Shown in pieces: positions 14,891 through 40,070 of a DNA stretch of 64,000 nucleotides. A model generated the notes under the pieces. The model saw nothing but the letters and a program-made list of their open reading frames with translations. It was not told the DNA's origin and searched no databases. Source of the DNA: an uncultured Smithella sp. (GTDB lineage: Bacteria; Desulfobacterota; Syntrophia; Syntrophales; Smithellaceae); contig CAYMWM010000003.1 in NCBI GenBank assembly GCA_964394185.1, positions 1,193-65,192 on the forward strand, given 5' to 3'. The first letter of the stretch is position 1. Each line of letters opens with the position of its first letter. Position numbers and translations under genes: made by a program.

Positions 14891-14911
14891 AAAAAATAAT
14901 GGTATGACACT

Positions 14912-22776: not shown

Positions 22777-22996
22777 GACCATTCGATATAAAATACACAT
22801 ATTCATTTTCATCTGAGTAGCATCATTATTACGGTATTGGTACCGAAGTAGATTAAAGAGGTTCCGTTTGATGAATTCTTTAAATCATGATTGCATGCCC
22901 GCTTTTTTGATTCCTTTACCGTATTTTCACGGCACTGCCTTTGCTATGCGTTATTTCCAAAGATCGGGAAATTAAATTCCAGGAAAGGTGATCCCC

Positions 22997-23776
22997 ATGC
23001 CCAAGATTGTTAATCATGATGAATACCGGCAGGAACTGCTGGAGAAGTCTTTTCATTTATTTACCCGCAAGGGCTATACTAATATAAACATGAAAGAAAT
23101 TGCCGCTGAAATCGGTGTATCCACCGGTACTCTCTATCATTATTTCCCTTCCAAAGAAAATATGCTTGCCGAGATGATTTCCTGGATAGGCCAGGAAAAC
23201 ACCGAAGAATATATCAAACGAACAAGTTCGGTCGAAAGCATCAGCGACCGTTTTGATATGATTGTTGATTACTGGAAAGAAAAGGGCAAGCTGTATGAAT
23301 GCATCCTGCTTCTGGCCTTCGACATGTACCGCAATACGGATATTGAACACTGGAAACCGCTCTATGACGCTTTTGCTGAACGCTACACGGCCGGTATGTC
23401 GGAGAGGCTCAATATCTCCCGCCAGTTTGCCCGTTCCATATTCATTTATTTTCTCGGACTTTCCTTTCACGCCATTGCTACCGGCAGCGACACCGATGAA
23501 TACAACAGGCAAGTGGATTTCCTCGATGTCATATTCAGACCGTTGATTGTTGATGCCGGACAGGACATGGGTAAAGCGACTCGGAAATTCAGGGAAGTTT
23601 ACAGAACATTTCTCGCCAATTTGCCGGTTGTTAAAAAGGAAGCCATTGAAAAGACAATGGAAAATTCACAGACGGAAAAAACCGGAAAAAAGCTTAAAAA
23701 ATCCAAAACAAAAATAAATAAATCAGCATTGAACAAGTCGAATAAAAAACAATATTCGGTAAAGGAGGCACCATGA
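22997..23776 (+). CDS. TetR/AcrR-family transcriptional regulator with Lys-rich C-terminal tail
   Basis: N-terminal HTH LFTRKGYTNINMKEIAAEIGVSTGTLYHYFPSKE. The ATG at 22997 follows AGGAAAGG; the track ORF starts at GTG 22988. Confidence 0.85.
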   Translation: MPKIVNHDEYRQELLEKSFHLFTRKGYTNINMKEIAAEIGVSTGTLYHYFPSKENMLAEMISWIGQENTEEYIKRTSSVESISDRFDMIVDYWKEKGKLYECILLLAFDMYRNTDIEHWKPLYDAFAERYTAGMSERLNISRQFARSIFIYFLGLSFHAIATGSDTDEYNRQVDFLDVIFRPLIVDAGQDMGKATRKFREVYRTFLANLPVVKKEAIEKTMENSQTEKTGKKLKKSKTKINKSALNKSNKKQYSVKEAP

Positions 23777-25014
23777 ATAAAAGCCTGGATGAATTATTTG
23801 TTTACCCGAAGGAACTGGTTGATGAAGAATCGAAGCGGATTATTCATCTGGTCGGGCAATGGGCGAATAAGGAAATTATTTCCAAACGTCAGGAGTACCG
23901 GGAAAATTACGAAAAGCTCTTTATCGAAAAGAGAAAATCCCTTAATCTTGCTATTGGTTTACAGAGGCTGACTTTACCGGAGGAACATGGAGGCTTCGGC
24001 TGGAACAGTCCCGCTAATGCTCCCGGTATCGTTTCCATCCTTGCCGAAATCGGACGGGCGGATGCCGCTATAGGCGTTGTCTCCGCCGTCAAATATACTA
24101 TATTTGCTGCAATCAGCATGGCACCCCATCTGGATAAAAAGCTGTGCGATGCGCTGGCACCGATTTATTGCGCCGAAGAGTTAAAAACGCCTTCCCTCAT
24201 CCTGCCAGGTTCGGGTAATATCGGGCAGGATACATCCCTGTTTTTAGGCAGGTCGATTCTCGCCACGGCTGAACCGGAAGGAGAAGGTTATGCGGTCAAT
24301 GGAAAGAATCTCAGGCCTTTAAACAGCGGCGCCGTGGCCGACCTCTTTTGCGTGGTATGCGCGGACAAACTGGGCAGGCCGTGCATCGCTTTGGTTCCCG
24401 GCGATGATCCAAATATCATCCGTGGTAAAACGCTTCTGGAAACCGGTTTAAACGCCAGCGCCAATGCCGGTGTAAGTTTCAATAATGTCAGAATCCCCCA
24501 ACCCCATGTTATTGCCCGCGAAGGCGTCGTCGAAGAAATCTACACCTGGCTGAATTTATTGCTCGGCGGTGTAAGTGTCGGCGCCGGAATGAACTTTTTT
24601 GAAATAGTGAGCGACTGGTCGGAAACCAGAACGATCAAGGGCGGATATATGATGAAGGAAAATCCTCTCTGCGCTTCTGTCCTGGCCGATGTGGCCGACG
24701 AGATTTTTACCGCAAGACTGCTCCTTTACAATCTGGCGCACATTATGTCCAAGCCGGATGACTGGGGATACAGCGGCTCGCAGCGGGTCTATACCTTTGC
24801 GCAGATCATTGGTTCGCAGGTGCAGCAGAAAGTCATCAGGGCAATCAACAGAGGAATGGAACTGATGGGTTCAGCCGGCTATTCCAAAGAGTGGCACGTG
24901 GAAAAACACTGGCGTGACGTCAAAACCATCCAGTCGTACTTATGCGGAGTCGGCGCTGAGGCGCCGGTGAAAATGGATACCGCGCGGTTTTTCTTTGACT
25001 GCAAAGAGATTTAA
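23773..25014 (+). CDS. Acyl-CoA dehydrogenase-family protein lacking the canonical C-terminal YEG(T/S) catalytic-Glu motif
   Basis: ACAD-length protein ending ..EKHWRDVKTIQSYLCGVGAEAPVKMDTARFFF. Overlaps the TetR stop (ATGA). Confidence 0.8.
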   Translation: MNKSLDELFVYPKELVDEESKRIIHLVGQWANKEIISKRQEYRENYEKLFIEKRKSLNLAIGLQRLTLPEEHGGFGWNSPANAPGIVSILAEIGRADAAIGVVSAVKYTIFAAISMAPHLDKKLCDALAPIYCAEELKTPSLILPGSGNIGQDTSLFLGRSILATAEPEGEGYAVNGKNLRPLNSGAVADLFCVVCADKLGRPCIALVPGDDPNIIRGKTLLETGLNASANAGVSFNNVRIPQPHVIAREGVVEEIYTWLNLLLGGVSVGAGMNFFEIVSDWSETRTIKGGYMMKENPLCASVLADVADEIFTARLLLYNLAHIMSKPDDWGYSGSQRVYTFAQIIGSQVQQKVIRAINRGMELMGSAGYSKEWHVEKHWRDVKTIQSYLCGVGAEAPVKMDTARFFFDCKEI

Positions 25015-25030
25015 TAAGGAGGCCAACACG

Positions 25031-26311
25031 ATGAAAAACTTCGATGAATTCTCAAAACAGGAAGAATACATATCCCCAATGGATAAACACCTCCGTAGTG
25101 CGCTAAGAAACTGGGCAGACAAAGAAGTCATACCCTTCAGGCGTCAATACGATGAAGACTGGAAAGATCATCACATCATCGAACCGGCCTTTGACAAACT
25201 TATGGGAAACAAAGGTCTCGGAATTCAAAAAGCTTTATTCCCGCCGGAGCTAGGCGGTTGGGGAATCGGTCATTCCGATTACGCCTTCACGGTTGCCTGT
25301 GCGCTGGGAGAAGAGGTGGGAAGGGCGGATACCGCCATGGCTGTAGCTTTTATGGTTACTTACTGGCCTCTCACTACAATCCTTGTCGAGCCTCACGTCA
25401 ACTGGCGTCTGGCCAAAGAGTTCGCGCCGATGTTTTGCAATGCCGAAAAGGCGGTTTTCGCAGCCAATGCCATGACGGAGCCTCAGGGCGGAGCAGATAT
25501 CGAGAATATGGAGATATTAGGCGGCAAGACCATCCGTACCACTGCGCGCCTCGATGGTGACGAATGGGTACTCAACGGCCACAAACTCTGGCCGACCAAT
25601 ACCGGCGGTGTGGCCAAGCTCTTCTGCGTGCCCTGTACAACCAAACCAGGTTCAAACGATCCCAATGATTTTGCATTGATATTTGTACCCGCCGACGCCA
25701 AAGGAGTAACCCAGGGAGGAGCTTACGAAAAGGCCGGTATGGCCGCAGACAAGAACGGCGACATCTGGTTTGAAGATGTCAGGGTGCCCAGCTGGTACCG
25801 TGCTCATGGTCCGGGTATCGACGCGCAGGTCTTTCGCGAAATCATTCCATGGGGACTGGTGGGCAGCATGGGATTCCTGTGTGGCGCCATGTTCAATCTT
25901 TATGAAATTCTCTATGAATTTGTTTCGACAAGAACCTACAAAAACAGACCGTTAAAGGAGGACGATTGCATTGCCGGTATTATCGGCAGGATTGCCGGCG
26001 ACATTGATATCTGCCGGATTCTGTCCTATGAAGCTGCAAAAATGTGCGACAGGCGCAACAAACCTTACGGATATCCGATATATTCCGATGAGGTAGTTTG
26101 CAAGATGCGCAACCTCAAGGATTTCGTTTCCGATAGAGCGGTGGATATTTTCGGCAAGACCATGGACGTATTAGGTGCGTATGGAGCCGATCGGGATTAT
26201 GATATCGAAAAGCACTGGCGCGATATCAAAATCATTCAGTTATGGATGGGCGGCAAGCAACTCTGTCAGATGGAAGCAGCCCGGTATTTCTTCAATTGCA
26301 AGACATTATAG
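25031..26311 (+). CDS. Acyl-CoA dehydrogenase-family protein, paralogue of 23773-25014, also without the YEG(T/S) motif
   Basis: TEPQGGADI (ACAD signature-like) and C-terminal EKHWRDIKIIQLWMGGKQLCQMEAARYFF. The ATG at 25031 is preceded by AAGGAGG; the track ORF starts upstream at 24995. Confidence 0.8.
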   Translation: MKNFDEFSKQEEYISPMDKHLRSALRNWADKEVIPFRRQYDEDWKDHHIIEPAFDKLMGNKGLGIQKALFPPELGGWGIGHSDYAFTVACALGEEVGRADTAMAVAFMVTYWPLTTILVEPHVNWRLAKEFAPMFCNAEKAVFAANAMTEPQGGADIENMEILGGKTIRTTARLDGDEWVLNGHKLWPTNTGGVAKLFCVPCTTKPGSNDPNDFALIFVPADAKGVTQGGAYEKAGMAADKNGDIWFEDVRVPSWYRAHGPGIDAQVFREIIPWGLVGSMGFLCGAMFNLYEILYEFVSTRTYKNRPLKEDDCIAGIIGRIAGDIDICRILSYEAAKMCDRRNKPYGYPIYSDEVVCKMRNLKDFVSDRAVDIFGKTMDVLGAYGADRDYDIEKHWRDIKIIQLWMGGKQLCQMEAARYFFNCKTL

Positions 26312-26322
26312 GAGAGCAAATC

Positions 26323-26760
26323 ATGGAAGAAGCCAACAAGGGAGTCATTGACTTAACCGACAGAGTGCTTAAAGAACTTCTCAAAAAGCCCGGTTTTAAA
26401 GAAGGCGTCAGAACAGTGCTGCAGAATATTGATCCGGATTCCAGCCGCAGACTGGTCAGAACGATGATGTGGCAGGATCCGGAGTTTTTTCTCGGATTGC
26501 TCGGCGCAGTTCCCTCTATCGTTAATTCCCTTGCGCAGGGAACGGATGAAATGCTTACTCAGCTCAACGAAAAATTTTCTCCGCAGCTGCTTCATGATTT
26601 TATGAAGTCGATTTTTTTGTCGCTGGATAAAGATACACTGGAGAACATTGTCCGCAATGGAAAAATTCTGGCAACAAAATTATGGATTGTAGCGGAAGAA
26701 ACATACAATGAACAAAACGCAGCCAATAGCATTACGGGGGGAAAAGAACATGGAAAATAA
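26323..26760 (+). CDS. Hypothetical helical protein, member 1 of a local three-gene paralogue family
   Basis: The ATG at 26323 follows GGAGAG. Shares the pattern ..NIDPD..LV..MWQ(D/E)PE..L..LG(A/S)(V/I)P..VNS.. ..LNEKFS..LL.D.. with the next ORF. Confidence 0.6.
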   Translation: MEEANKGVIDLTDRVLKELLKKPGFKEGVRTVLQNIDPDSSRRLVRTMMWQDPEFFLGLLGAVPSIVNSLAQGTDEMLTQLNEKFSPQLLHDFMKSIFLSLDKDTLENIVRNGKILATKLWIVAEETYNEQNAANSITGGKEHGK

Positions 26761-27391
26761 CGCCGCAATGCCCGCCGCAGGCGGAGTAATGAAAGAAGTG
26801 TTGAGTACACCCTTTGTCAAAGATTTGATTCGCCTCAATCTGCAGAACATCAAACCGGAGAAAACGCATCCGCTCGTCAATACGCTTATCTGGCAGGAAC
26901 CGGAAGTTATTTTATCTGTTTTGGGTTCGATTCCTCCCGTTGTCAATTCCTGTACCGGCGCTCTGGCAGAAGCGGGAAAGCAACTCAATGAGAAATTTTC
27001 ATCGGAACTGCTCCGGGATTATGTCGGCAGCATTCTGAAGGATATCGATACGGAAGCATTGAAAGGTCTGGTTGAAGCTTATGTCGCTCTGGGGAAAAAT
27101 CTCTGGGACGCTTCCCCCGAATTCAGGGAGATGGTCGGCAAAGCATTAACTCAGGATGCACCGCCGCTCGTCGGCAAAGGAATCAGTTCGGCCTGTCGCT
27201 TTGTCAACGACGTCAGCAGGGAAGACCCGCAGGTGGTAAGCCGGTTTGTTTCGGATGTCGTGAAAAATATCGACGGCGAAGAATTTAAGGATGCGACCCA
27301 TACAATTGCCAACGCGTTTTTGGATCAGAAGCTGCATTTAATTTCCTGGACATGGCAGTTACTGCGCAAAAGAATGAAAAGAAGAAAGTAG
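26750..27391 (+). CDS. Hypothetical helical protein, member 2 of the local paralogue family
   Basis: Aligns with member 1 (LQNIKPEKTHPLVNTLIWQEPEVILSVLGSIPPVVNS..LNEKFSSELLRDY). The start at 26750 overlaps the member 1 stop by 11 nt. Confidence 0.6.
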   Translation: MENNAAMPAAGGVMKEVLSTPFVKDLIRLNLQNIKPEKTHPLVNTLIWQEPEVILSVLGSIPPVVNSCTGALAEAGKQLNEKFSSELLRDYVGSILKDIDTEALKGLVEAYVALGKNLWDASPEFREMVGKALTQDAPPLVGKGISSACRFVNDVSREDPQVVSRFVSDVVKNIDGEEFKDATHTIANAFLDQKLHLISWTWQLLRKRMKRRK

Positions 27392-27418
27392 TTATTAACA
27401 TGAATGGAGGCACGTTCC

Positions 27419-28651
27419 ATGAATGATGTTGAAAAACAGATTCAAACCGATCCCGCCGCCAAAGTAATAGGCGAAATTATCTGGAGATTTGCCAAAACAC
27501 CTCCGGCAAGAAATCTGGTTATGTCCGTTGTTCGTGCTGCGCTGAAGGACTGGTCGGGTGACAGCAGATTTAGGGAACACATATCAGCAAACCTGGAAAA
27601 GACCATTGATAATGTCCTTTCTCAGAGAGGAAATAACGAAAACAAAATTGCCGGAGATGCAAGTTACGCGGAAAGCCTTCGTCCAATTGTACGTGATTTG
27701 GTCGAAAACATTGATTTTGGCGAAATAAAGGAAGCAGCAGACTTTCACAAAGAAAACATCGGGGCCGCTGTCATGATGATCAATGAGGAGCTCTGGCGTT
27801 ATCCGGCCAAGGTCATTTGTTTGTTGTCACTGCTTCCTGCCGCCGCGAACATGACTGTGTCGGCGGCCAAGGAAACCCTGACGCCAATGAACAGGCTGGC
27901 GCCGGATCTGCTGGCCGATGTGGTTTTTTCTCTGGTTGATGATATTGACGGCAAAAATATCGGTGAACTGATTAATGAACTAAGTGAACTTGTTCGTAAA
28001 ATTCATACCGGCAGCACGCTTTTGGGCGAACCGGGCAAACCTCAGCTGCCCAACTCTTTAAATCGTCTGACAGGTGAAGTCATCAGCACGATTGATATCA
28101 ATCTGTTGCTGAAATCCAGAAAGCTTTTGGCGGAAATCAAGGAAGTCTCGCTGAAATCCTTCATTGACCAGCTGGAACTAAGCCCCGAACTTTCCAGTGA
28201 ATTTTTCCAGGATCATTTTCTTTCTATAGTGGCGTTTATCAGAAACTGGAGCCGCAAAGCCGACGCCTTTGAGCGTCTGTTTTCCGATGAAGACATTGCT
28301 CGTGAATTTGCTAAAGGTATGGGCGAGATTGACGCCCAGGAAGTGGCTAGTACGATCAGCATGTTGTGCGGCATTGTGAATCGTGTGCGTGCTGTTACGC
28401 CGGGTGTTATACGCAATACCCTGTCGCAGACGATAAACGCGATGGACGCGGACGAAGCCGGTGAGACGGTGCGCTGGCTTACCGAGGATATCGTGGAATC
28501 TCTTAAACCGGTGGCTTCCGAGGTACTGCCCCCTCTTATCAGAGGATTGGCGGACCTTTTAAGACCGGATCCCAACAATGGTTCCAAAGAAATTCAGGAA
28601 GCGCTTGCCTATTTTAATAACGCAATTGACGGGAAGGAGGCACCTGTATGA
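27419..28651 (+). CDS. Hypothetical helical repeat protein, member 3 (about three copies of the module)
   Basis: Contains the related segment NEELWRYPAKVICLLSLLPAAANM..MNRLAPDLLADVVFSLVDDIDGKNI and recurrent x-(I/M)-D-x3-(hydrophobic) motifs. The ATG at 27419 follows GGAGG. Confidence 0.6.
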   Translation: MNDVEKQIQTDPAAKVIGEIIWRFAKTPPARNLVMSVVRAALKDWSGDSRFREHISANLEKTIDNVLSQRGNNENKIAGDASYAESLRPIVRDLVENIDFGEIKEAADFHKENIGAAVMMINEELWRYPAKVICLLSLLPAAANMTVSAAKETLTPMNRLAPDLLADVVFSLVDDIDGKNIGELINELSELVRKIHTGSTLLGEPGKPQLPNSLNRLTGEVISTIDINLLLKSRKLLAEIKEVSLKSFIDQLELSPELSSEFFQDHFLSIVAFIRNWSRKADAFERLFSDEDIAREFAKGMGEIDAQEVASTISMLCGIVNRVRAVTPGVIRNTLSQTINAMDADEAGETVRWLTEDIVESLKPVASEVLPPLIRGLADLLRPDPNNGSKEIQEALAYFNNAIDGKEAPV

Positions 28652-29796
28652 TGAAGGAATTTATTGAGGCCTCCACGGCTCTCAACAACAAGCATGTAAA
28701 CCAGTGGAAGAAAAAAGGAAAAAAAGTTGTCGGTTATACCTGTTCCTATGTGCCCGATGAAATCTTTCACGCGGCGGGTATTCTGCCATTTAGAATCCGC
28801 GGATTCGGCGCTACCGAAAATACAATCGGGGACACATACTTTGGCCCCTTCATTTGCAGTCTTCCCAAGTGCATGCTGCAACTGGCCGGTGAAGGGAAAT
28901 TTAATTTTCTGGATGGCGCGATCATCACACCCGGTTGCGATTCAATGAGACGGCTCGATGAGTGCTGGCGCAAAGCCGGTAGTGATATGCCGGGTGTTAT
29001 ACCCCCATTCTTTTTTCATTACGGCGTTCCTCATAAGTATGAGGACTATACCATCAAGTGGTTTACGGATGAAACCAAGCGTCTGATTGCGGCGGTTCAA
29101 GAACATTTTAAAGTTGAAATAACCGAGGCTGATCTCAAGGAGTCCATCAGTGTTTATAATTACAGCAGAAAACTCCTTGAAAGATTTGACGCACTGCGCA
29201 CGATGGATAATCCGCCGTTCGGCGGCGGAGAAGCGCTAGCGGTCATTCTTGCCGGCACGACCATGCCCCGGGAGAATTACAACACCCTTTTGGGGAAATT
29301 CCTTGCCGATGCTCAAAAAGCTCCCGGAATAAAGGATCGTGTACGATTGATGCTTGTCGGCAGCGCCAATGATGACATCGGATTGGTTCGGGTGATGGAA
29401 GGATCAAAGGCGCTTGTGGTTGCCGATAATCTTTGTTTCGGGTCCCGTTTTTACACCGACCGGGTTGGCGAAGACGGCGATCCGGTTTTGGAACTGTCCA
29501 AACGCTATCTGGGGCACAATGATTGTCCCCGCATGTATGGCGATTATCAGAGAAGATTGAACATACTGGAACAGAAGGTCAAAAAAGCAAAAATTGACGG
29601 TATCGTTCTGCAGAACATCCGCTTCTGCGATCTTCACGGCGCGGAAAACGGCATCTTTGAACGGGACCTGGAAGCCAAAGGAATACCCTGCATGCGTCTC
29701 GAACGGGAATATGGTCCTTTGGTGGAGACGGGAAGAATGAAAATGCGCGTCGATGCTTTTATTGAGCGAATACAGCAGAGGAGGAAAGCAGCATGA
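28648..29796 (+). CDS. HGD-D family subunit, BcrC/BzdN/HgdB-like (small subunit) of an ATP-dependent reductase/dehydratase
   Basis: GYTCSYVPDEIFHAAGILPFRI (characteristic N-terminal C-x-Y-x-P-x-E motif) and conserved Cys in ITPGCDSMRRL and IRFCDLHG. 382 aa. Confidence 0.8.
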   Translation: MMKEFIEASTALNNKHVNQWKKKGKKVVGYTCSYVPDEIFHAAGILPFRIRGFGATENTIGDTYFGPFICSLPKCMLQLAGEGKFNFLDGAIITPGCDSMRRLDECWRKAGSDMPGVIPPFFFHYGVPHKYEDYTIKWFTDETKRLIAAVQEHFKVEITEADLKESISVYNYSRKLLERFDALRTMDNPPFGGGEALAVILAGTTMPRENYNTLLGKFLADAQKAPGIKDRVRLMLVGSANDDIGLVRVMEGSKALVVADNLCFGSRFYTDRVGEDGDPVLELSKRYLGHNDCPRMYGDYQRRLNILEQKVKKAKIDGIVLQNIRFCDLHGAENGIFERDLEAKGIPCMRLEREYGPLVETGRMKMRVDAFIERIQQRRKAA

Positions 29797-31199
29797 GAAA
29801 GGAAACCAGAGAATATAAATTTGACTGGATGATGTGGACCACCTTTGCGTCAGGTGCCAGATTGAAAAGCGGAACTCAAAAAGAATATAATGCGAGCTTG
29901 AAATATATTCCTTATTTCAGCCGGATTATCGATGTCCTGCTCAGTGCGGGAGAACCGGGCACGAAGTTTATCGAGATCTGCGCCAAGTACATGGAAAATC
30001 TGACTTTTGCGAAAGAGAAGGGTAAAAAGACAGCCGTCACAACCTTCTGTTTCTCACCCGCCATTTTTTACGCCATGGATATCGTGCCGATCTGCCTGGA
30101 AGTCCTCTCCGTGATGATGACTTTTGTCTATAAAAGAGGAACGGCTGAATTTTTGGATTATTGCAACGAAGCGGGCTTTACAGAAACATCCTGTTCTGCC
30201 CAGCGCGGTTCTATCGGCGCTTATCTGGCAGGTATCGGTACGGATGTGGACATGTTCGTGATGGATACGCCGGGGGTTTGTGATACCAACGCCAATGCTT
30301 TCTCTTTTGCCTCGGCTTATTTGAACAAACCATTCTTTCAACTGGATATGCCTCCGGATCTCACAGGGCAGCGTTCCAATGAATATCATCGTGAGGACTT
30401 TAAATCACTCATCTGCTTTTTGGAAGAACAGACAGGGAAAAAACTTGATTCTGAACGCTTGAGGGCAAGTCTTCGGGAACTCGCCAGACAGGATGAGATT
30501 ATTGCCGAACTGGAGGATCTGGCAAGAATGATACCGAATCCCCGGCCTGTTTCCTACAACCTGATGTTGTACGCTTCGCGGTTTCTTTTTGCCAGTATGC
30601 CGGAGTGTACAGAGGTGCTTGAAGCTATGTTAAAAGTCGCCAGGAAAAACGCCGCGAATAACATTTCCGGATTAAGCAGTGGAAAAGAAAAACTTCGGGC
30701 TTTTTTCTGCTACATCGACCATTACGCCCAGAACATGCAGTTCTGGAAGATGCTCGACGGCAATGGCATCTGCTATCAGGGCAATATCCTCAGTCATTTT
30801 TGGTCTCATAATTCGCCTTGTGTTGCTCATTATAATAAGGAAGAAGCGTCCTATACGATTGATACAAAAGATCTGGATTCGATGATTGACAGTCTGGGTA
30901 TGATCAATTCCCGCATGCCTATGATCAAATCCATCCGCGGACCCTACGACGCCCCCAATATGTGGCTGGAAGATACCCTGGGATTGGCGAAACTCTACAG
31001 CGCAGACCTTATTGTTTACAATGGAACACCGGGGTGCCGCAACACTTGGGGAATGGTGAAACTTCTGGCTCGCGATACCGAAAAGGCCGGCTATCCGACG
31101 TATATTATGTATGCCGACGCCTTTGATGAGCGCGTGCAGTCCTGGGAAGCGACAGAAGAACGGTTCATGGAATTTCTTAAGGTAAGGAGGCTTGTATAA
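29793..31199 (+). CDS. HGD-D family subunit, BcrB/BzdO/HgdA-like (large subunit)
   Basis: 468 aa. TFCFSPAIFYAMDIVPICLE, TSCSAQRG, PGVCDTNANAF and PGCRNTWG Cys-containing segments typical of the family. ATGA overlap upstream. Confidence 0.8.
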   Translation: MRKETREYKFDWMMWTTFASGARLKSGTQKEYNASLKYIPYFSRIIDVLLSAGEPGTKFIEICAKYMENLTFAKEKGKKTAVTTFCFSPAIFYAMDIVPICLEVLSVMMTFVYKRGTAEFLDYCNEAGFTETSCSAQRGSIGAYLAGIGTDVDMFVMDTPGVCDTNANAFSFASAYLNKPFFQLDMPPDLTGQRSNEYHREDFKSLICFLEEQTGKKLDSERLRASLRELARQDEIIAELEDLARMIPNPRPVSYNLMLYASRFLFASMPECTEVLEAMLKVARKNAANNISGLSSGKEKLRAFFCYIDHYAQNMQFWKMLDGNGICYQGNILSHFWSHNSPCVAHYNKEEASYTIDTKDLDSMIDSLGMINSRMPMIKSIRGPYDAPNMWLEDTLGLAKLYSADLIVYNGTPGCRNTWGMVKLLARDTEKAGYPTYIMYADAFDERVQSWEATEERFMEFLKVRRLV

Positions 31200-31990
31200 T
31201 GTTTGCAGCGGGATGCGATGTTGGTTCATTAACGTCCAAGGCCGTCATCATGAAGGACGGCAAGATCGTTGAATCCGTCATTATAAAATCAAAGGCACGA
31301 CCCTGGGAGTCGGCCGATGAGGTGATGAATATTGTACTATCGCGAGCCAACCTGACGATGCAGGATATCAAATACTGTGTCGGTACCGGCTACGGCCGCG
31401 ACAAGATATCTTTTATTAACGAGGCTGTCTCCGAGATTGCCTGCCACGGCATGGGAGCCCGCTGGCTGGTTCCATCCGTAAGAACGGTTATTGATATAGG
31501 TGGTCAGGACTGCAAGGCCCTGCGTCTGGATGACAAAGGCAATATGGTGAAGTTCATTACCAACGACAAATGCGCTTCGGGAACCGGACGGTTTCTCGAA
31601 GTGATGGCAAAAGTCATGCATCTGAATCTTGACGAACTGGGAGAGATGTCGGCGCGTTCCAGACAGCCCGTTACCTTTGCTTCGGCCTGTACGGTGTGGG
31701 CACAGGCTGACGTTATACAGCATTTGAATGACAAGGTGCCCATCGAAGACATTGCCGCCGGGGTCAATAACGCCATGGCCAGCCGTATGTCCACTCTCGC
31801 CAACAACATCGGTCTGGAGAGAGATGTGTGCATGACAGGCGGTGTAGCCAAAAACACTGGTGTGGTAAACGCGCTGGAAAAGCACCTTGGCATAAGGATT
31901 AAAAGGATTCGCCGCGAAGACCCGCAGCTTGCCGGCGCCATCGGCGCGGCGCTCTTTGCTGCGGAAAAAGCAAATGGAGGTGCTAAATGA
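31199..31990 (+). CDS. BcrAD/BadFG/HgdC-family (ASKHA) electron-activating ATPase, copy 1
   Basis: GCDVGSLTSKAV, IDIGGQDCK, DKCASGTGRFLE and TGGVAKN motifs. 263 aa. Confidence 0.85.
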   Translation: MFAAGCDVGSLTSKAVIMKDGKIVESVIIKSKARPWESADEVMNIVLSRANLTMQDIKYCVGTGYGRDKISFINEAVSEIACHGMGARWLVPSVRTVIDIGGQDCKALRLDDKGNMVKFITNDKCASGTGRFLEVMAKVMHLNLDELGEMSARSRQPVTFASACTVWAQADVIQHLNDKVPIEDIAAGVNNAMASRMSTLANNIGLERDVCMTGGVAKNTGVVNALEKHLGIRIKRIRREDPQLAGAIGAALFAAEKANGGAK

Positions 31991-32772
31991 TTACAGCGGG
32001 TTGTGATATCGGTTCTCTTACGGCCAAGGCCATTATTATGAAAGATGGAAAAATCATCGCCTCGGAAGTCATCCTTGCATCGGCTCAGCCTGAAAAATCG
32101 GCAACCGAAGTGATGAAACGTGCTATTGAAAAAGCCGGCATCAAAATGGAAGACATCGGATACTGCACGGGTACCGGCTACGGCCGTAAACACATCCCTT
32201 TCATGAATTCCGAAGAATCCGAAATTGCCTGCCATGCCAGAGGTGCGGTCTGGCAGGTACCTTCGGCTCGCACGGTGGTGGATATCGGCGGACAGGACGC
32301 CAAGGCTATCCGCGTGGATGAAAAAGGGAATGTCGAACGTTATGTTTACAACGACAAATGTGCTTCGGGCACAGGACGGTTCCTGGAGATTATCGCTGAT
32401 GCGTTGGACATTAAGCTGGAAGATTTGGGTTCCCTATCGGAAAAGGCAAAGGAAAAACTGACCCTTTCCAATCAATGCGTGGTTTTTGCTGAAACGGAAA
32501 TTATTTCCCTGGTGAACGATGGAAAAGAAATTGCCGACATTATCAATGCCCTGCATCAGGCCGTTGCCAACCGGGCGGCGTCATTGGCCAGAGGTATTCT
32601 TGTCGAGCCCGATGCCGTTATGACGGGCGGTGTAGCGAAAAATTCCGGCATGTTCGCGGCACTGGAAAGGGCTCTGGGTGTGAAACTGCACAAAGTGGAG
32701 AATCCCCAGATAAACGGGGCTCTGGGAGCGGCTCTTTTTGCAGCCGATAAAGTAAACGGTTCAGGGAAGTAG
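31987..32772 (+). CDS. BcrAD/BadFG/HgdC-family (ASKHA) electron-activating ATPase, copy 2
   Basis: GCDIGSLTAKAI, DIGGQDAK, DKCASGTGRFLE and TGGVAKN. 261 aa. ATGA overlap with copy 1. Confidence 0.85.
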   Translation: MITAGCDIGSLTAKAIIMKDGKIIASEVILASAQPEKSATEVMKRAIEKAGIKMEDIGYCTGTGYGRKHIPFMNSEESEIACHARGAVWQVPSARTVVDIGGQDAKAIRVDEKGNVERYVYNDKCASGTGRFLEIIADALDIKLEDLGSLSEKAKEKLTLSNQCVVFAETEIISLVNDGKEIADIINALHQAVANRAASLARGILVEPDAVMTGGVAKNSGMFAALERALGVKLHKVENPQINGALGAALFAADKVNGSGK

Positions 32773-32778
32773 GGGAAA

Positions 32779-33513
32779 ATGGAGCTTTTTGGAGAAACCC
32801 TCTCAGATATCAGAAAGTATATGGCGGGGAAAAACAGTGAGGCACGGGTTATAGAAGCGCAAAAAAATGCCTGGCCCCCGGGCGGGGGCAGAAATGTGGT
32901 TTTATCGGACGATATGGCGCTAGAATTGGGAAATCCCCAGATGAATTCCGTCTCCTGCCTGATATGGACACAAAATGCCGGTTTTGTTCATGACGGGAGA
33001 ATCAGTCTTATCGGTCCGGATATAAAAGAAAGCAGCGGGAAGAGTCTGCCCTTCGGGAAGATTGTTCTTGCCGAGGTTAGCGGATTTGATGAAGAGACGA
33101 CCTACGATAAATATAAGGAAATGGAAACCGTGCGATACGCTCTCGATCTTAAAGGATACATGATCAGGGCGGTATCGCAGTATCAGAGGGAATGGAGCCG
33201 AATCAGCAGGGAAGCCGTTCAAAAAGGTTTTTCCTTTGAAATCCTGGCCGGTTCTTTGAGAAATGAATATTTAAAGAAGGATTATATTCATGCCGTTGAA
33301 TTTATTTTTGTGACATCTAGCGCCGGTGATGTCGGTGAACTTCAGGAAATCACGAAAAACGTGGGCCGTAAGGTCAGCGCCCTCAACAAGATGTTAAGTG
33401 AAATGGATACCGATTGCGATGAGTGTGAGTACAACGATGTTTGTGATGAAGTCGATGAACTCAAAGGCATGAAAAAAAAGCGTGATGAAAAAAGGATAGG
33501 AACAAATGGATAA
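32779..33513 (+). CDS. Truncated acetyl-CoA synthase (AcsB/CdhC)-like protein lacking the Ni-binding A-cluster domain
   Basis: LIGPDIKESSGKSLPFGKIVL and EWSRISREAVQKGFSFE resemble the central GPD(I/L)..LPFG and W.RVSKD.A.K segments of ACS as I remember them. The protein ends at DCDECEYNDVCDE. Needs HMM confirmation. Confidence 0.55.
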   Translation: MELFGETLSDIRKYMAGKNSEARVIEAQKNAWPPGGGRNVVLSDDMALELGNPQMNSVSCLIWTQNAGFVHDGRISLIGPDIKESSGKSLPFGKIVLAEVSGFDEETTYDKYKEMETVRYALDLKGYMIRAVSQYQREWSRISREAVQKGFSFEILAGSLRNEYLKKDYIHAVEFIFVTSSAGDVGELQEITKNVGRKVSALNKMLSEMDTDCDECEYNDVCDEVDELKGMKKKRDEKRIGTNG

Positions 33514-34276
33514 AAAAACAAAGACGATAGCATTATGCGGAAAGGGCGGCGTGGGCAAAACATCTGTGTCGGCGCTGATGATCAAGGACCTTGCCCAAAG
33601 AAAAGACATCAAGGTGCTGGCCATAGATGCCGATCCGGCTGTGGGCCTCTGTACGGCGTTGGGCATACAAATCAGAAAGACCGTGGATGATATAAGAAAC
33701 GATTTAATCAAATCGATTAAAAAAGGAGAGGGGCAGGACAAAGCGGCCACGCTGAACATGCTCGATTACGAACTCTTTGATGCCCTGACGGAATTTAATA
33801 ATGTCGGATTGCTGGCGATCGGCAGGCCGGAATCCGAGGGTTGCTTCTGCAAGGTTAACTCTCTTTTAAAGGATATCATCCAGGATCTGGCGAAAAATTT
33901 CGATGTAGTTTTAATTGACGGGGAAGCCGGCGTCGAGCAGATCAACAGAAGAGTGATGAAAACAGTGGATCACCTGATTATGATATCCGATACATCAGCC
34001 AAAGGTGTGAATGTTGCCAACACCATCAAACATCTGGCCCAGGATAATAAGGCCGTGAATTATAAAAGCATCGGGATGATTTTGAACCGCGTTAGAGATG
34101 AACGTGAAGTTAAGGACATCGGAAAGAATACCTCCATTAATATTTTAGGCTGGCTGTCTGAAGACAACCTGATCAGGGAATTCGATTTTCACGGCAGGTC
34201 ATTTCTGGATTTTCCTGACGAAGCCGGTGCCAGCAAAACCGTAAAACAAATTATACAGGATTTGCAGATTAATTAG
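33506..34276 (+). CDS. CooC/AcsF-type MinD-family metal-insertion ATPase
   Basis: Deviant Walker A CGKGGVGKTS, IDADP, and a CxC motif in GRPESEGCFCKVNSLL, as in CooC nickel chaperones. The start overlaps the upstream stop by 8 nt. Confidence 0.75.
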   Translation: MDKKTKTIALCGKGGVGKTSVSALMIKDLAQRKDIKVLAIDADPAVGLCTALGIQIRKTVDDIRNDLIKSIKKGEGQDKAATLNMLDYELFDALTEFNNVGLLAIGRPESEGCFCKVNSLLKDIIQDLAKNFDVVLIDGEAGVEQINRRVMKTVDHLIMISDTSAKGVNVANTIKHLAQDNKAVNYKSIGMILNRVRDEREVKDIGKNTSINILGWLSEDNLIREFDFHGRSFLDFPDEAGASKTVKQIIQDLQIN

Positions 34277-34294
34277 TCAAAGAGAGAATGCGTC

Positions 34295-35128
34295 ATGAAT
34301 ATTGCGGTGGTATATTTTTCGCAAACAGGCCAGACCCTGAAAGTTGCTGAAGCGATGGCGGAAAATCTGCGTGAAAAAAAGCATACGGTAAAGGTTTTGC
34401 CAATGCGGAAAGTAAAACCTGCCGATATTGCAATATGTGACTTGCTGGGCGTGGGATCTCCCTGCTTCGAGAGTCAGGCTCCGACACCGGTTCTTGACTG
34501 GCTTGGTAAGTGGCCTGCTCTTAACGATAAACCTGTTTTTGTCTTTGCAACTTCGGGCGGAGCGCCAGGCCGTGTTCTTTATGATCTTAACAGGGTGTTG
34601 CGCGTCAAGGGCGCCAGAGTCATCGGCGGGTTTATGAGCCGTGGTACCGTGCATCATCCTGCACCCTGCCTGATCGGTCGCCTGCCGAACCGCCCCAATT
34701 CCGAAGATTTGGCACAAGCCCGTGCCTTTGCTTCGGCAGTGGATAAATATATGCAGTCTTGCAGTACGGGCGTCATGTCGGAGAGCCGTCCGGACGCGCT
34801 CAAACCCATGTGGGGTTATTTTCACCTGATAGGTCTTGTCACGAAACCGTTCCTGCTGCGCATGGTACTTCCCAAACCAAAGGTGGATAAGAACCTATGC
34901 AATCAATGCGGGCTTTGCGCGAAAGAATGTCCGGTGAACAGCCTGACCCTTAAGCCGTATCCGGTACTGAATAGCCACTGCATCCGCTGTTATCACTGCC
35001 AGAATATCTGTCCGCAAAATGCCCTGAGTGAATCGTGGTGGTATGGAAATCTGGTTATATGGTTCCTTTATAACACAATCTTTTCCCGTCTTTTCGGGGA
35101 TCTGAAGCCGGGAGAAAGTATTTACTGA
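34295..35128 (+). CDS. Flavodoxin-like domain fused to 2x[4Fe-4S] ferredoxin domain, with hydrophobic C-terminal helix
   Basis: MNIAVVYFSQTGQT (flavodoxin FMN-loop motif), CNQCGLCAKECP and CIRCYHCQNICP, and the C-terminal WWYGNLVIWFLYNTIFSRLF. Confidence 0.8.
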   Translation: MNIAVVYFSQTGQTLKVAEAMAENLREKKHTVKVLPMRKVKPADIAICDLLGVGSPCFESQAPTPVLDWLGKWPALNDKPVFVFATSGGAPGRVLYDLNRVLRVKGARVIGGFMSRGTVHHPAPCLIGRLPNRPNSEDLAQARAFASAVDKYMQSCSTGVMSESRPDALKPMWGYFHLIGLVTKPFLLRMVLPKPKVDKNLCNQCGLCAKECPVNSLTLKPYPVLNSHCIRCYHCQNICPQNALSESWWYGNLVIWFLYNTIFSRLFGDLKPGESIY

Positions 35129-35162
35129 TAGGACAGCAGTAGAACAAAGAAGGGGGATCAAT

Positions 35163-36299
35163 ATGGCAACATCCGGAAAAACCATGAAGGTATTTGAAGA
35201 ACTTTTGGAAAGTCCGCAGAATCGTCTGGTTGAACAGGCTCTACAGGATGGACGCATACCCATTGCCTATTCATGTTCTTATGTTCCCGAAGCCCTGCTT
35301 ATGGCGGACAAACTTTTTCCCGTACGTCTGCACACGCCCGGTGTCGCAGGCACCGAAATTGCGGACAACTATCTTTCCAGCCTCACTTGTTCTTATACCC
35401 GCAGCCTGCTGGAATTTACTATGGATGATCGTTTCGATCAAATTAAAGGCTGGGTATTCGTACCCGCCTGCATTCATATGCAGAGGCTCTATGACAATCT
35501 GGAATATCTGAAACATCCGGTTTTCAATCATGTGCTGGATGTGCCGCGGAAAGTGAATAAGGACACACTGGAATGGATGGCCGAAGAACTGAAAATTCTG
35601 GCGGATAAACTTGCCGCGCATTTCGGCGTGGACATGAGCGATGATTCAATCAAAAGAGCTATTCGTCAATGGAACGACTTTGCCGCTGCCGTCCAGTCTA
35701 TCGGTGAGTTGCGTAAAAAACCAAATCCGCCCGTAACCGGCACGGAATTTCATCAAATGGTAATGGCCGCGCTGGCCTCGCCCAAGGACCTTATTTTACC
35801 GGTTATCTCCAATCTCAAAAAAGAACTGGATGAGCGGGAAGGCATCAAGAAATACCGGGCGCGTCTGATGATTGTCGGCGGTCATCTGCACGATCCGGAT
35901 TTCATCAAAATCATCGAATCACAGGGTGGCTTGGTTGTGGCGGACCGTTTCTGTACTGGGACGATTCCCGGCTTTAAAACCATAGGACTTAACGGAGGCA
36001 ACCCGTACAAGACTCTGGCTGAATATGCCTTCGACAAAACACTTTGCCCGCGGATGATGGAGGAATTCGACCGTCGGCTGAACATGATTATCGATACCGT
36101 AAAAGAATACAAGGTGGATGGTGTGGTGTTGGAGATCATCAAATTCTGCGATCTCTGGGGAGTGGATTCCATGCCGCTGGTAACCGCTTTGCGCGAGACG
36201 GGCATCCCGGTGCTCAAATTGGAGCGGGAATACCGGCTCGGCGGGGAAGGTCAACTGCGCACACGCGTGCAGGCTTTTATCGAAAGCATGGGTAAATAA
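35163..36299 (+). CDS. HGD-D family small (BcrC/HgdB-like) subunit, second set
   Basis: AYSCSYVPEALLMADKLFPVRL N-terminal motif, FVPACIHMQRL and IKFCDLWG. 378 aa. Confidence 0.8.
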   Translation: MATSGKTMKVFEELLESPQNRLVEQALQDGRIPIAYSCSYVPEALLMADKLFPVRLHTPGVAGTEIADNYLSSLTCSYTRSLLEFTMDDRFDQIKGWVFVPACIHMQRLYDNLEYLKHPVFNHVLDVPRKVNKDTLEWMAEELKILADKLAAHFGVDMSDDSIKRAIRQWNDFAAAVQSIGELRKKPNPPVTGTEFHQMVMAALASPKDLILPVISNLKKELDEREGIKKYRARLMIVGGHLHDPDFIKIIESQGGLVVADRFCTGTIPGFKTIGLNGGNPYKTLAEYAFDKTLCPRMMEEFDRRLNMIIDTVKEYKVDGVVLEIIKFCDLWGVDSMPLVTALRETGIPVLKLEREYRLGGEGQLRTRVQAFIESMGK

Positions 36300-36316
36300 T
36301 TTGATAAGGAGAATGC

Positions 36317-37831
36317 ATGAAACTCAATACGGTTATTGATAATACCAAAGCCAAAATGATGGATTTGCCATTCATTACAAAGAGATTTCTTCGAAACTCC
36401 TGGGCCGGATACCTTTTTCGCGGACCGAATCCCCGCGATGCGGCTGTTTTTATAAAATACTGGATTATGAACTGGGCGGCTATTTTCTACTGGATTGGCG
36501 AATCTATAATTAAACTGGGCCCTGTCGGATTCACCCGCGCGCTGATTAAAAATCCCTGGATACTGATTTTGCTCAGGGTCAATGGCGCCTCCAACCGTAT
36601 GGTGCTCGGTCGAACCGGCATGTATCACGATTCCATCTGTCTGACCATGCATACCATTTGTCTGGGCGTAATCGATCAACTGCGCCAGATGCTGTTTGAT
36701 CCCGAGCGCCTGGTTGTCTTCGAGGATCTCGTTCCCTATGATATCGGACGGGCTATGGGATTGAACTGTTACCTGCTCGAACTGATGGGTATTGTTTTGC
36801 CCATTCTCTATTCCGATGCTTCCTTGCCGTACATCGATGAAGCGGAAAACTCGGGTATGAATCCCGATGCCTGCAGTTTACCCAAGGCCACCGTGGGCAT
36901 GGTCATCAAGGGTCATATGCCCAAAGGGGTGGCCATGGTAAGTTCCAACATGCCCTGCGACGCGGGGGCTGCCTCCTATGCCTTCATCGAGCGCGCCTTT
37001 AATGTTCCCACCTACCGGGTGGACGCGCCTTATTTTTTCTACAACGAACGGGCGGAAAAGCTGTTTGGCAAGGATATTGACGGCATGATTGCCTGGCTGG
37101 AGGAACATACCCCCGGACGCATGGACTGGGATGAAATGCGCAAAATCTGTGAAGGCCGCAACCGCATGCTGGAAATGGAGACGGAGCTCTGGGAAATGAT
37201 TAGAGTCAAACCCGCGCCGCTGGCCTGCGAGGCGGTGTGGTTGAGCCACATCTGGCATTTCAATGTCACGGCTGGTTATCACCGGTCGGTCAAATTTTAT
37301 GAAAAGCTCCTAAAAATGGCGCGCAGAAATTATGAAAATAAAATTTCCGCCACAAAAAATGAGAGATATCGGGCGGTGCTCTGGAACCCGCCGTTTCTCC
37401 ATTTCAGCGATATTTTCAACTGGGTAGAACGCACCTACGGTGTAGTTCTTATCAATGACAGCATGACTTACAATCATCATGGTCCCATCGATACGACCTC
37501 GAAGGAAACCATGATCAGGGATTGGGGCAGGACCGTCATGCAGGGGCCCATGGTTCGCCATACGCGCGGACCGGCTGAGAACTATCTGGACGATATTTTC
37601 CGCATGTATGAGCAGTTCAGTCTCGATATGGTCTGGGTAGCCAACCATGTGGGGTGTAAAGGCGGTCAGGCCATGAACGGCATCCTGCGGGAGCGGTGCC
37701 GCGCCAAAGGCATTCCCCTGCTCATTCTGGATTACGACCTCTCCGATCGAAGGATCGTATCGCATGACAACATGATGAAGCAGGTGGATTTCTTTATGGA
37801 AAACGTCATGAAGGCAAATCGCCTGAATTAA
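36317..37831 (+). CDS. HGD-D family large subunit with ~110-aa hydrophobic N-terminal extension (copy A)
   Basis: 504 aa. DACSLPKATVG, SNMPCDAGAASY and VANHVGCKGGQA conserved Cys segments. About three-quarters of aligned positions look identical to 40071-41591 by eye. Confidence 0.8.
   Translation: MKLNTVIDNTKAKMMDLPFITKRFLRNSWAGYLFRGPNPRDAAVFIKYWIMNWAAIFYWIGESIIKLGPVGFTRALIKNPWILILLRVNGASNRMVLGRTGMYHDSICLTMHTICLGVIDQLRQMLFDPERLVVFEDLVPYDIGRAMGLNCYLLELMGIVLPILYSDASLPYIDEAENSGMNPDACSLPKATVGMVIKGHMPKGVAMVSSNMPCDAGAASYAFIERAFNVPTYRVDAPYFFYNERAEKLFGKDIDGMIAWLEEHTPGRMDWDEMRKICEGRNRMLEMETELWEMIRVKPAPLACEAVWLSHIWHFNVTAGYHRSVKFYEKLLKMARRNYENKISATKNERYRAVLWNPPFLHFSDIFNWVERTYGVVLINDSMTYNHHGPIDTTSKETMIRDWGRTVMQGPMVRHTRGPAENYLDDIFRMYEQFSLDMVWVANHVGCKGGQAMNGILRERCRAKGIPLLILDYDLSDRRIVSHDNMMKQVDFFMENVMKANRLN
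37538..37818 (+). repeat. Near-identical 281-nt tract shared with 41295-41575 (3' ends of the duplicated HGD-D genes)
   Basis: Gap-free collinear alignment at offset 3757. It includes a 41-nt run of perfect identity (cggtgccgcgccaaaggcattcccctgctcattctggatta), so synonymous sites are conserved. Confidence 0.85.
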
Positions 37832-37847
37832 AGATAGAGGAGTTACA

Positions 37848-39158: not shown

Positions 39159-39181
39159 ATAAATACATGAAGGAGATTGAC

Positions 39182-39973
39182 ATGACGAAGAAATATTACG
39201 GCGGCTGCGATGTCGGCTCCACAACCGGCAAAGCGGTCATTCTTGATGAAAGCGGCAACATGGTTTCCAGCGCCATCGTTCCCAGTGAAATTGATCCGGA
39301 ATTGACCTCTGTATTGGCTCTGGAGAAGGCCTGCGCAATGGTGGATGGCTTAAAAAGCTACAAAGAGCTGGCTTATCTTGTGGGTACGGGCTACGGGCGG
39401 AATGAGGTCTCTTTTGCCAACGAAAATATTTCTGAGATCAGCTGCCACGCCATGGGGACTTTTTCCTGCGCGCCTTTAGTCAAAACTATTGTGGATATCG
39501 GCGGGCAGGATGTAAAAACGATTTCCTTAAACGGCGATGGTTCGGTGCTGGAATTTGCCATGAACGATAAATGTGCCGCCGGTACAGGAAGATTCTTCGA
39601 GGCCATGAGCCGTATCTTCCGGATGGATCTCAATGAATTTTCATCGCTGTCTTTGAAGGCCAACAAGATTATTCCGGTTACCGCCCAGTGCAGTGTCTTC
39701 GCGGAGAGTGAGGTCATCAGTCTGCTGGCGCGCCGCAATCCTCCCGAAGAAGTAGCAGCAGGAATTCAGGCGGCGGTTTCCAAGCGCTGCTTCACATTGC
39801 TCAAACGAATCGGTATGCAGCCTCTGGTGACCGTGACGGGTGGATGCGCCAAAAGCAAGGGACTGATTAAATCATTGACCAAAGTCATTGGCATGGAAGT
39901 GACGCCTCTGCCGGTAGATCCCCAGATAATTGGCGCACTGGGAGCTGCTGTATTTGCCCGACGCCGGCAGTGA
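39182..39973 (+). CDS. BcrAD/BadFG/HgdC-family (ASKHA) activator ATPase, copy 3
   Basis: GCDVGSTTGKAV, DIGGQDVK, DKCAAGTGRFFE and TGGCAKS. The ATG at 39182 follows AAGGAG; the track start is 39167. Confidence 0.85.
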   Translation: MTKKYYGGCDVGSTTGKAVILDESGNMVSSAIVPSEIDPELTSVLALEKACAMVDGLKSYKELAYLVGTGYGRNEVSFANENISEISCHAMGTFSCAPLVKTIVDIGGQDVKTISLNGDGSVLEFAMNDKCAAGTGRFFEAMSRIFRMDLNEFSSLSLKANKIIPVTAQCSVFAESEVISLLARRNPPEEVAAGIQAAVSKRCFTLLKRIGMQPLVTVTGGCAKSKGLIKSLTKVIGMEVTPLPVDPQIIGALGAAVFARRRQ

Positions 39974-40070
39974 ATATAGTAGTTGATAATTTTGGTGCTT
40001 TAAAAATTAAATTGGAAAAGAGGCCAGTCTTATTCGGAAGCAGGAACAACGTATTTATGGTGAGTCTTAC

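Follow-up and report, generated by a model that had tools for sequence, protein, structure and literature searches.

The stretch of DNA analysed here (hereafter the window) comprises 64,000 nucleotides of contig CAYMWM010000003.1 from an uncultured Smithella sp. (assembly GCA_964394185.1, here G000), and its positions 28648-32772 hold four consecutive genes that we lean towards reading as the core of an ATP-driven, low-potential Fe-S reductase. Judged from the protein sequences, this enzyme would be built like a benzoyl-CoA reductase (BCR), would act on an acyl-CoA and would belong to an uncharacterised sister clade of the known enzymes. Its substrate is almost certainly not benzoyl-CoA. We prefer a reductase to a dehydratase because the small subunit carries the six-cysteine signature of an [8Fe-9S] double-cubane cluster, because the pair of ATPases is conserved and because of the order of the genes.

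All four genes lie on the forward strand. The first (28648-29796) encodes a small HGD-D subunit of 382 residues (Pfam HGD-D, 2e-82), the predicted carrier of the double-cubane, and the second (29793-31199) a large HGD-D subunit of 468 residues (HGD-D, 8e-47), predicted to be catalytic and to hold a [4Fe-4S] cluster by three cysteines. They are followed by two putative electron-activating subunits of the ASKHA type, namely ATPase 1 (31199-31990, 263 residues, Pfam BcrAD_BadFG, 1e-57) and its paralogue ATPase 2 (31987-32772, 261 residues, 3e-59). The open reading frame (ORF) list and Pfam agree on these genes, their order and their coordinates, as the initial annotation had them, apart from the length of about 262 residues that it gave to both ATPases. 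The overlapping stop and start codons that it described were also found, with overlaps of 4, 1 and 4 nt between successive ORFs. A Shine-Dalgarno sequence of the GGAGG type is located 6-9 nt 5' of all four starts, the four frames are intact, and a scan for promoters and terminators returned nothing above shuffled controls. With two HGD-D proteins (PF06050) and BcrAD/BadFG ATPases (PF01869), the set falls into the superfamily of BCR, 2-hydroxyacyl-CoA dehydratases (HAD) and double-cubane cluster proteins (DCCP). The order small-large-ATPase-ATPase matches bzdNOPQ of Aromatoleum evansii. This arrangement is not due to chance, because Spirochaetota and other families of the host's own order have it too.

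To describe the cluster ligands of the small subunit, the structure paper of BzdNO (PMC11971306) and a review on double-cubane proteins (PMC7317905) were used as yardsticks. Residues C32, C70, C97, C263, C293 and C327 align with C36, C73, C100, C263, C293 and C327 of BzdN, and the same six cysteines align with six ligands of the seven-cysteine motif of DCCP. Elsewhere the pattern is incomplete: HadC has four of the six, and three of the six are found both in MbdN and in the small subunit of another set of the same genome, on contig C175. Only two double-cubane proteins are known structurally, and both are reductases (PMC11971306, PMC7317905). In searches of PDB sequences the small subunit matched BzdN (141 bits), HadC (129 bits), MbdN (119 bits) and DCCP (98 bits). 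None of the curated cut-offs was reached, the scores being 157 of 350 bits for the double-cubane model, 150 of 700 for HadC, 145 of 421 for BcrC and 136 of 454 for BzdN. By their source names, the closest homologues belong to Smithella/Smithellaceae (82-86% identity) and Spirochaetota (64-81%), and close homologues are labelled there as 'benzoyl-CoA reductase subunit C'.

In the case of the large subunit, the similarity is more remote. Searched alone against the PDB with phmmer, it gave weak matches to DCCP and HadB and missed BzdO, and a profile of 19 of its relatives returned BzdO (136 bits), HadB (112 bits), DCCP (107 bits) and MbdO (98 bits). In the curated equivalog scan it scored 32 of 750 bits for HadB, and the BzdO model was not among the matches listed. 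Three cysteines, C134, C163 and C415, do not vary within its clade and E103 hardly varies, and these residues correspond to C95, C128, C380 and E65 of BzdO. Thus, the six cysteines of the small subunit and the three of the large one predict the same cofactor complement as in BzdNO, an [8Fe-9S] cluster and a three-cysteine [4Fe-4S] cluster, in combination with a different pocket. His131 of BzdO is replaced by Asn166, Tyr97 by Ala136 and Trp46 by a valine. Of these, Tyr97 hydrogen-bonds the thioester oxygen in BzdO (PMC11971306); it is retained in BzdO, MbdO, HadB and the C175 protein. An AlphaFold2 model of the large subunit (predicted local distance difference test score, pLDDT, 87; predicted template modelling score 0.90) was compared by Foldseek with known structures, giving template modelling (TM) scores of 0.73 for BzdO, 0.71-0.72 for HadB, 0.72 for MbdO and 0.68-0.70 for DCCP. 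As far as the model goes, the family fold is confirmed, and the TM-scores do not discriminate between BzdO, HadB, MbdO and DCCP.

Phylogenetic analysis of the catalytic subunits was carried out with reference sequences from PDB alignments (whose ends are slightly short), the bzdNOPQ locus of Aromatoleum evansii and Bzd-type sets of the host's own phylum; Had was the sole dehydratase reference, and catalytic sequences of Thn, Bcr (Thauera), Hgd, Fld and Lcd were outside the sampling. The tree shows two groups. The first is a clade of the characterised type (support 95/93) with BzdO, MbdO, HadB and the C175 protein, inside which the added Bzd-type O sequences of the same phylum form a clade of their own (100/100). 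The second is a new clade (100/97-99) consisting of two subclades. One of them, here called the winA type (support 99-100), contains the four-gene set together with members from Spirochaetota, from genome G093 and from metagenome loci in which the large subunit is 32% identical; the other contains the remaining large subunits of the window, including that of the second HGD-D pair, and the C24 locus of the same genome. Approximately unbiased (AU) tests reject a grouping of the winA type with BzdO/MbdO (p 3e-6) as well as with HadB (p 9e-6). It is therefore strongly supported, on sequence grounds, that the catalytic subunit belongs to an uncharacterised sister clade to that of BzdO, MbdO and HadB. 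The initial annotation had proposed a candidate class I ATP-dependent aryl- or dienoyl-CoA reductase, with the remark that class I-type enzymes of obligate anaerobes have been linked to substituted or partially reduced rings, and had named clustering with dehydratases as the contrary outcome. The tree bears out neither, since the subunit lies outside the BzdO/MbdO clade, which also takes in Bzd-type proteins from obligately anaerobic members of the phylum, and is also separate from HadB, the only dehydratase reference being Had (HadBC with its activator).

Among the known systems, BzdNOPQ of Aromatoleum sp. CIB (8S02, 8S1T, 8S2R; Fuchs et al. 2025, PMC11971306) is the one that shares most with the set: the gene order, the six small-subunit cysteines, the three cysteines and the Glu65 equivalent of the large subunit, and two different ASKHA ATPases each with the pair of cysteines for a bridging cluster. 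BzdN and BzdO are also the best sequence and fold matches of the two HGD-D subunits, by small margins. These likenesses are what could be said for a genuine aryl-CoA reductase of class I whose reaction is the dearomatisation of benzoyl-CoA or a close analogue, which is the strict sense of the initial annotation. We consider this very unlikely. The identity to Bzd is about 20%, the equivalog cut-offs are missed threefold, the scores for BzdN, BcrC and BzdQ are all far under cut-off, His131, Tyr97 and Trp46 of BzdO are not kept, and the catalytic subunit is placed in the other clade. Genuine BzdN orthologues do occur in the phylum, where they exceed the cut-off in 7 of 401 genomes with up to 570 bits, and none exceeds it in the window's genome. 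Same-phylum Bzd-type sets (250-570 bits to the BzdN model, the genuine ones 430-570 bits) form 100%-supported clades with BzdO, BzdP and BzdQ, all of which exclude the window proteins. In addition, the window operon carries a helical partner, a fragment of acetyl-CoA synthase (ACS) and a CooC-like gene that bzdNOPQ does not have, and its host has no downstream pathway of benzoyl-CoA over cut-offs. No Oah/BamA exceeded its cut-off in G000, which is 85.5% complete (best 78 of 464 bits), or in five carriers that are 96-100% complete; no dienoyl-CoA hydratase (Dch) did so in G000 (best 85 of 292), and no BadI in G000 and four carriers (best 299 of 468).

Similar differences were seen in the case of MbdONQP, the 3-methylbenzoyl-CoA reductase of Thauera chlorobenzoica (9G87, 9GAI). 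As an ATP-dependent reductase of four subunits, Mbd resembles the set, and its MbdQ is the best match of ATPase 2 (219.5 bits). Unlike the window proteins, MbdN has three of the six cysteines, implying a single [4Fe-4S] cluster, MbdO is a member of the characterised clade, and the delta subunit MbdP scores about 135 bits against either window ATPase. As for Thn-type enzymes, the likeness is that of a class I-type enzyme of obligate anaerobes of the same phylum, encoded in a catabolic operon for CoA esters with a regulator first and a ferredoxin after. A naphthalene thn operon, suspected from the TetR, acyl-CoA dehydrogenase (ACAD) and BCR-like genes, was considered and rejected: the closest homologues carry the source names Smithella, Smithellaceae and Spirochaetota, and the proteins are outside the Bzd-type clade. 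Altogether, going by the sequences, the set is like a class I reductase in its build and in the cofactors it would carry, yet it is not a Bcr, Bzd or Mbd orthologue or a member of that class. Of the initial assignment, then, the subunit order, the superfamily and the two distinct ATPases with their cluster cysteines stand, and the equivalog cut-offs, the catalytic clade and the orthology of the ATPases speak against it.

The two ATPases are 52% identical and thus distinct proteins, as had been noted from the start. Both keep Cys125 and Cys164 (Cys127 and Cys166 of HgdC), so that each has the cluster-ligating cysteines proposed for checking, and both keep the DxGS and DIGGQD motifs. In the degenerate delta subunits BzdP and MbdP these two motifs are no longer intact; the window ATPases are not orthologous to BzdP and BzdQ, and neither of them is degenerate. 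In the PDB, ATPase 1 matched HadI (238 bits), HgdC (212), MbdQ (210) and MbdP (137), and ATPase 2 matched HadI with 218 and MbdP with 134 bits, next to its best match given above. Neither reached a curated cut-off, with 195 and 206 of 380 bits for BzdQ and 132 and 146 of 313 bits for BcrD.

The ATPases of the first and of the second position each have their own orthologue clade that includes Spirochaetota and G093 (support 95-100). Orthologues of ATPase 1 come from Spirochaetota, G093 and the distant locus L086, and the clade of ATPase 2 orthologues has a support of 99-100. Smithella-like and Spirochaetota genomes have kept the two lines apart, with 76-77% identity between their orthologues. 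As a whole, ATPases 1 and 2 fall together, along with further ATPases from the new class. Both are excluded by the Bzd P (100/100) and Q (100/99) clades, and AU tests reject ATPase 1 with delta (p 0.0007) and ATPase 2 with alpha (p 0.0016). This indicates that the pair goes back to a gene duplication within the new enzyme class and has an origin separate from that of the alpha and delta subunits of BCR. The gamma-beta-delta-alpha equivalence suggested in the initial annotation does not hold for the ATPases, which are each other's paralogues.

Wherever a homologous locus extends far enough, a tandem of ATPase genes is found 3' of the large subunit, namely in L001 and L002 (both Spirochaetota), L085, L086, L088, L090 and in genomes G093, G012 and G166, with the identity of the large subunit falling to 32%. 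In the loci of G093 (L091) and G012 (L092) there is a single HGD pair each, an argument for one catalytic dimer that is served by both ATPases. On this view ATPase 1 and ATPase 2 would probably form a heterodimer. If this is correct, a two-ATPase electron injector has evolved at least two times, which bears on the question of why reductases use heterodimers. The ATPases could also be two separate homodimeric activators for different HGD-D modules of the gene island, an explanation that can be combined with other readings and that we regard as unlikely. The window has four HGD-D modules and three ATPases, so that some sharing of ATPases must occur, and in contrast to the degenerate delta subunits both proteins have their ATP and cluster motifs complete. 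On the other hand, the tandem persists where there is one HGD pair, the two ATPase genes are translationally coupled by their 4-nt overlap, and both lineages are kept together wherever flanking sequence is available.

Several observations weigh against a reductase. Both ATPases are as close to the homodimeric dehydratase activators HadI and HgdC as to MbdQ. The six-cysteine pattern is also present in the neighbouring HGD-D pair B, which has a single ATPase, and the pattern consequently tracks the clade and not the number of ATPases. Glu103 is common to HadB and does not separate a reductase from a dehydratase. With His131 changed to Asn and Tyr97 to Ala, the chemistry of the active site could be another one, possibly without any thioester. 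Finally, not all homologous loci come with a dedicated ferredoxin.

Some of these points agree with a redox-neutral ketyl-radical enzyme of the 2-hydroxyacyl-CoA dehydratase kind (a dehydratase, eliminase or isomerase), in which the ATPases would prime the enzyme with one recycled electron. HadBC with HadI (3O3M, 4EHT) and HgdC (1HUX) belong to the same superfamily, HadB has the same site of three cysteines and a glutamate, the ATPases are 45-50% similar, with HadI the best match of ATPase 1, and the structural distance of the large subunit to HadB (TM 0.71) equals that to BzdO (0.73). Nevertheless, we judge such an enzyme unlikely. Had has one homodimeric activator and the order activator-alpha-beta, whereas the order here is small-large-ATPase-ATPase with two conserved paralogues. 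Its beta subunit HadC has four of the six cysteines and a [4Fe-5S] cluster. Moreover, a common clade with HadB is rejected by the AU test given above, and the HadB and HadC scores are far under cut-off.

Following the reductase reading, the path of the electrons could be described in four steps. Firstly, reduced ferredoxin or flavodoxin, possibly the flavodoxin-ferredoxin fusion of the operon, would reduce a [4Fe-4S] cluster between ATPase 1 and ATPase 2, held by Cys125 and Cys164 of each. Secondly, ATP hydrolysis would push the electron into the presumed [8Fe-9S] double-cubane of the 382-residue subunit. Thirdly, the double-cubane would store electrons and hand them to the three-cysteine [4Fe-4S] cluster of the 468-residue subunit. 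Finally, the bound substrate would be reduced beside Glu103, probably by two electrons in net terms; most likely this substrate is a CoA thioester provided by a nearby CoA ligase, and not benzoyl-CoA. The initial annotation had left the substrate open, and we do the same.

For a CoA thioester speak the genes that adjoin the set in homologous loci, CoA ligases in L086, L091 and L093 and ACADs in the window, L086, L090 and L092. A different proposal follows from the double-cubane proteins themselves, for which the reduction of substrates that are not CoA esters (a small molecule, ketone or aldehyde) has been put forward. DCCP/DCCP-R of Carboxydothermus hydrogenoformans (6ENO, 7YYL) shares with the window its six [8Fe-9S] ligands, which are kept in the small subunit. 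DCCP itself consists of a single kind of HGD-D protein in homodimeric form, has a seventh cysteine and is accompanied by one ATPase, whereas the window set is a predicted heterodimer with six of the seven cysteines in the small subunit and three in the large one. In line with such a substrate, the catalytic clade does not have the tyrosine that bonds the thioester in BzdO, the GMC oxidoreductase is the commonest neighbour, and there is no CoA ligase or ACAD within 10 kb in the Spirochaetota locus. We nevertheless hold this to be quite unlikely, considering that CoA ligases or ACADs adjoin most other loci and that the DCCP model is matched with 157 of 350 bits. The large subunit is, in addition, without the second sub-cluster, like those of the CoA-ester enzymes; its loss there gives the pocket for the organic substrate in BzdO (PMC11971306).

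The four genes are part of a same-strand array of 19 genes and about 20 kb (22988-42939). In order, the array comprises a TetR gene, two ACAD-like genes, three helical proteins, the four-gene set, the ACS fragment, the CooC-like ATPase, a flavodoxin-ferredoxin fusion and then HGD-D modules: a second HGD-D pair, an Fe-S protein and a third ATPase, followed by another large HGD-D subunit with its own Fe-S protein. Beyond the array there are, downstream, a fourth HGD-D pair, a GMC oxidoreductase, a thiolase, a CoA ligase and another ACAD pair. All features described in the following are on the forward strand unless stated otherwise.

The helical protein directly upstream of the set (27404-28651, 415 residues, no Pfam match) is a candidate fifth component. 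Its 3' end overlaps the start of the small subunit by 4 nt, so that the two genes are translationally coupled. Homologues that could be aligned lie directly 5' of the small subunit in L001, L086 and L087, and L091, L092 and L093 have ORFs of matching size and place, judged by size and position and not by alignment. Like the ATPase tandem, the partner gene comes back in all loci with sufficient flanking sequence. The AlphaFold2 model of this protein had a pLDDT of 43 and was unusable, so it was left out of the fold search. On the other side of the set, the ACS-fragment protein or 'mini-ACS' (32779-33513, 244 residues, Pfam CdhC 2e-13, NCBIfam ACS beta fragments) is followed by a CooC/MinD-type P-loop ATPase (33506-34276, 256 residues, Pfam AAA_31, CbiA and Fer4_NifH). 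A mini-ACS is also located 3' of the ATPase pair in L001 and L091, in both cases paired with a CooC-like ATPase, and in the C24 locus it separates the ATPases from the HGD pair. It is not found 3' of the ATPase pair in L092, where, on contig C31 of G012 at 1826-4746, this pair runs straight into a GMC oxidoreductase; the two genes are therefore frequent but not obligatory neighbours. The next gene (34295-35128) encodes a flavodoxin fused to a 2x[4Fe-4S] ferredoxin (277 residues, Pfam Flavodoxin_5 and Fer4), which by analogy with the donors of HgdC and BCR is a plausible electron donor to the ATPases.

These neighbours led us to a more far-reaching proposal that we put forward tentatively, as possible but well short of probable. 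The four genes, with an obligatory helical partner and in many genomes also the ACS fragment and the CooC-like, nickel-chaperone-like ATPase, could represent a new class of ATP-driven Fe-S reductase with an independently arisen heterodimeric electron injector. Its reaction would be unlike arene dearomatisation and 2-hydroxyacyl dehydration, for example with a non-aromatic acyl-CoA, alicyclic or derived from isoprenoids, that undergoes reduction or C-C/C-S chemistry. A search of the accessible literature returned no description of this clade, nor of a BCR-like enzyme with mini-ACS and CooC. The biochemistry of the family rests on one catalytic-subunit clade (BCR, HAD) and on DCCP, and the present set belongs to a well-supported sister clade. 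As predicted here, it would also be a second case in which the rare [8Fe-9S] double-cubane is part of a heterodimer. In a Syntrophaceae metagenome-assembled genome (MAG), subunits annotated as bcr were cautiously read as a potential for the degradation of aromatics (PMC10936416). If those subunits are of the present type, that interpretation is probably wrong.

At the head of the array is a TetR-family regulator (22988-23776, Pfam TetR_N 9e-16), and TetR genes also adjoin homologous sets in L001, L092 and L093. It is followed by two adjacent ACAD-like genes of 413 and 438 residues (23773-26311, Pfam Acyl-CoA_dh), whose top NCBIfam match is a weak one to cyclohexane-1-carbonyl-CoA dehydrogenase (104 bits, cut-off 650). 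A second adjacent pair of ACAD-like genes of unequal length lies at 53540-56203. Such pairs recall heteromeric alpha2beta2 ACADs, and their NCBIfam matches, cyclohexane-1-carbonyl-CoA dehydrogenase and acryloyl-CoA reductase, are far under cut-off. Further downstream of the set, the syntenic companion module of the second HGD-D pair (378 and 504 residues), a poly-cysteine Fe-S protein and the third ATPase (268 residues) spans 35163-39973 according to Pfam, and the Spirochaetota locus L001 carries the same small-large-ATPase module downstream. The GMC-family flavoprotein oxidoreductase (47360-48724, Pfam GMC_oxred_N and GMC_oxred_C) is short, with 454 residues, and GMC genes adjoin homologous sets in L001, L002, L091 and L092. 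NCBIfam gave no specific name that identifies a substrate for the neighbouring ACADs, CoA ligase, thiolase, GMC oxidoreductase and short-chain dehydrogenase/reductase.

Regarding the occurrence of the set, a winA-type large subunit was found in 12 of 201 sampled genomes of the order and in six of the eight other genomes sampled from the host's genus. Close relatives among the database matches are also labelled Spirochaetota and Chrysiogenales. Copies from Spirochaetota are 71-77% identical, compared with about 50% for copies in other families of the host's order, which suggests a lateral transfer of the cluster. In G093, a genome that is 100% complete, the operon starts with two PF04240 membrane proteins and the partner-sized ORF, followed by the small and large subunits and two ATPases, and continues with the mini-ACS, the CooC-like ATPase, a GMC oxidoreductase and a CoA ligase. 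In G012 the order is partner-sized ORF, small, large, ATPase, ATPase, GMC, TetR and ACAD.

Some additional details of these loci may be of use in the search for a substrate. The two PF04240 genes of L091 (G093:C62:11000-30000, minus strand, 12892-15206), annotated as 'carotenoid biosynthesis protein', lie directly 5' of the partner-sized ORF; together with the GMC and CoA ligase genes they are a possible hint of an isoprenoid-derived substrate. In L086 an aldehyde:ferredoxin oxidoreductase and a CoA ligase (2677-6230) are located directly 5' of the helical partner, suggesting that the enzyme is fed from an aldehyde via the acid and its CoA ester. Between the small and large genes there is an ORF of 72-74 residues in L086 (8715-8939) and L087 (1861-2079) that the window does not have. 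Four genomes of the same order carry tandem winA-type large subunits, each about 51-52% identical to the query, before the ATPase pair (G165:C4:60537-63410, G166:C56:26985-30101, G098:C224 and G195:C3).

The window's genome itself is a MAG of 3.63 Mb with 11 HGD-D and about eight ATPase genes. It contains a second set with two ATPases on contig C24 (L003, G000:C24:5000-20000, positions 5380-10390), in the order ATPase, very divergent ATPase, mini-ACS, large HGD-D and small HGD-D; the second ATPase is strongly degenerate, with a branch length of 2-3. A classical HadBC-like set with one ATPase is located on contig C175 (L004, G000:C175, 576-3651, minus strand). The large subunit encoded there, which has both Tyr97 and His131, falls with BzdO, MbdO and HadB in the tree, and the small subunit is the one with three of the six cysteines.

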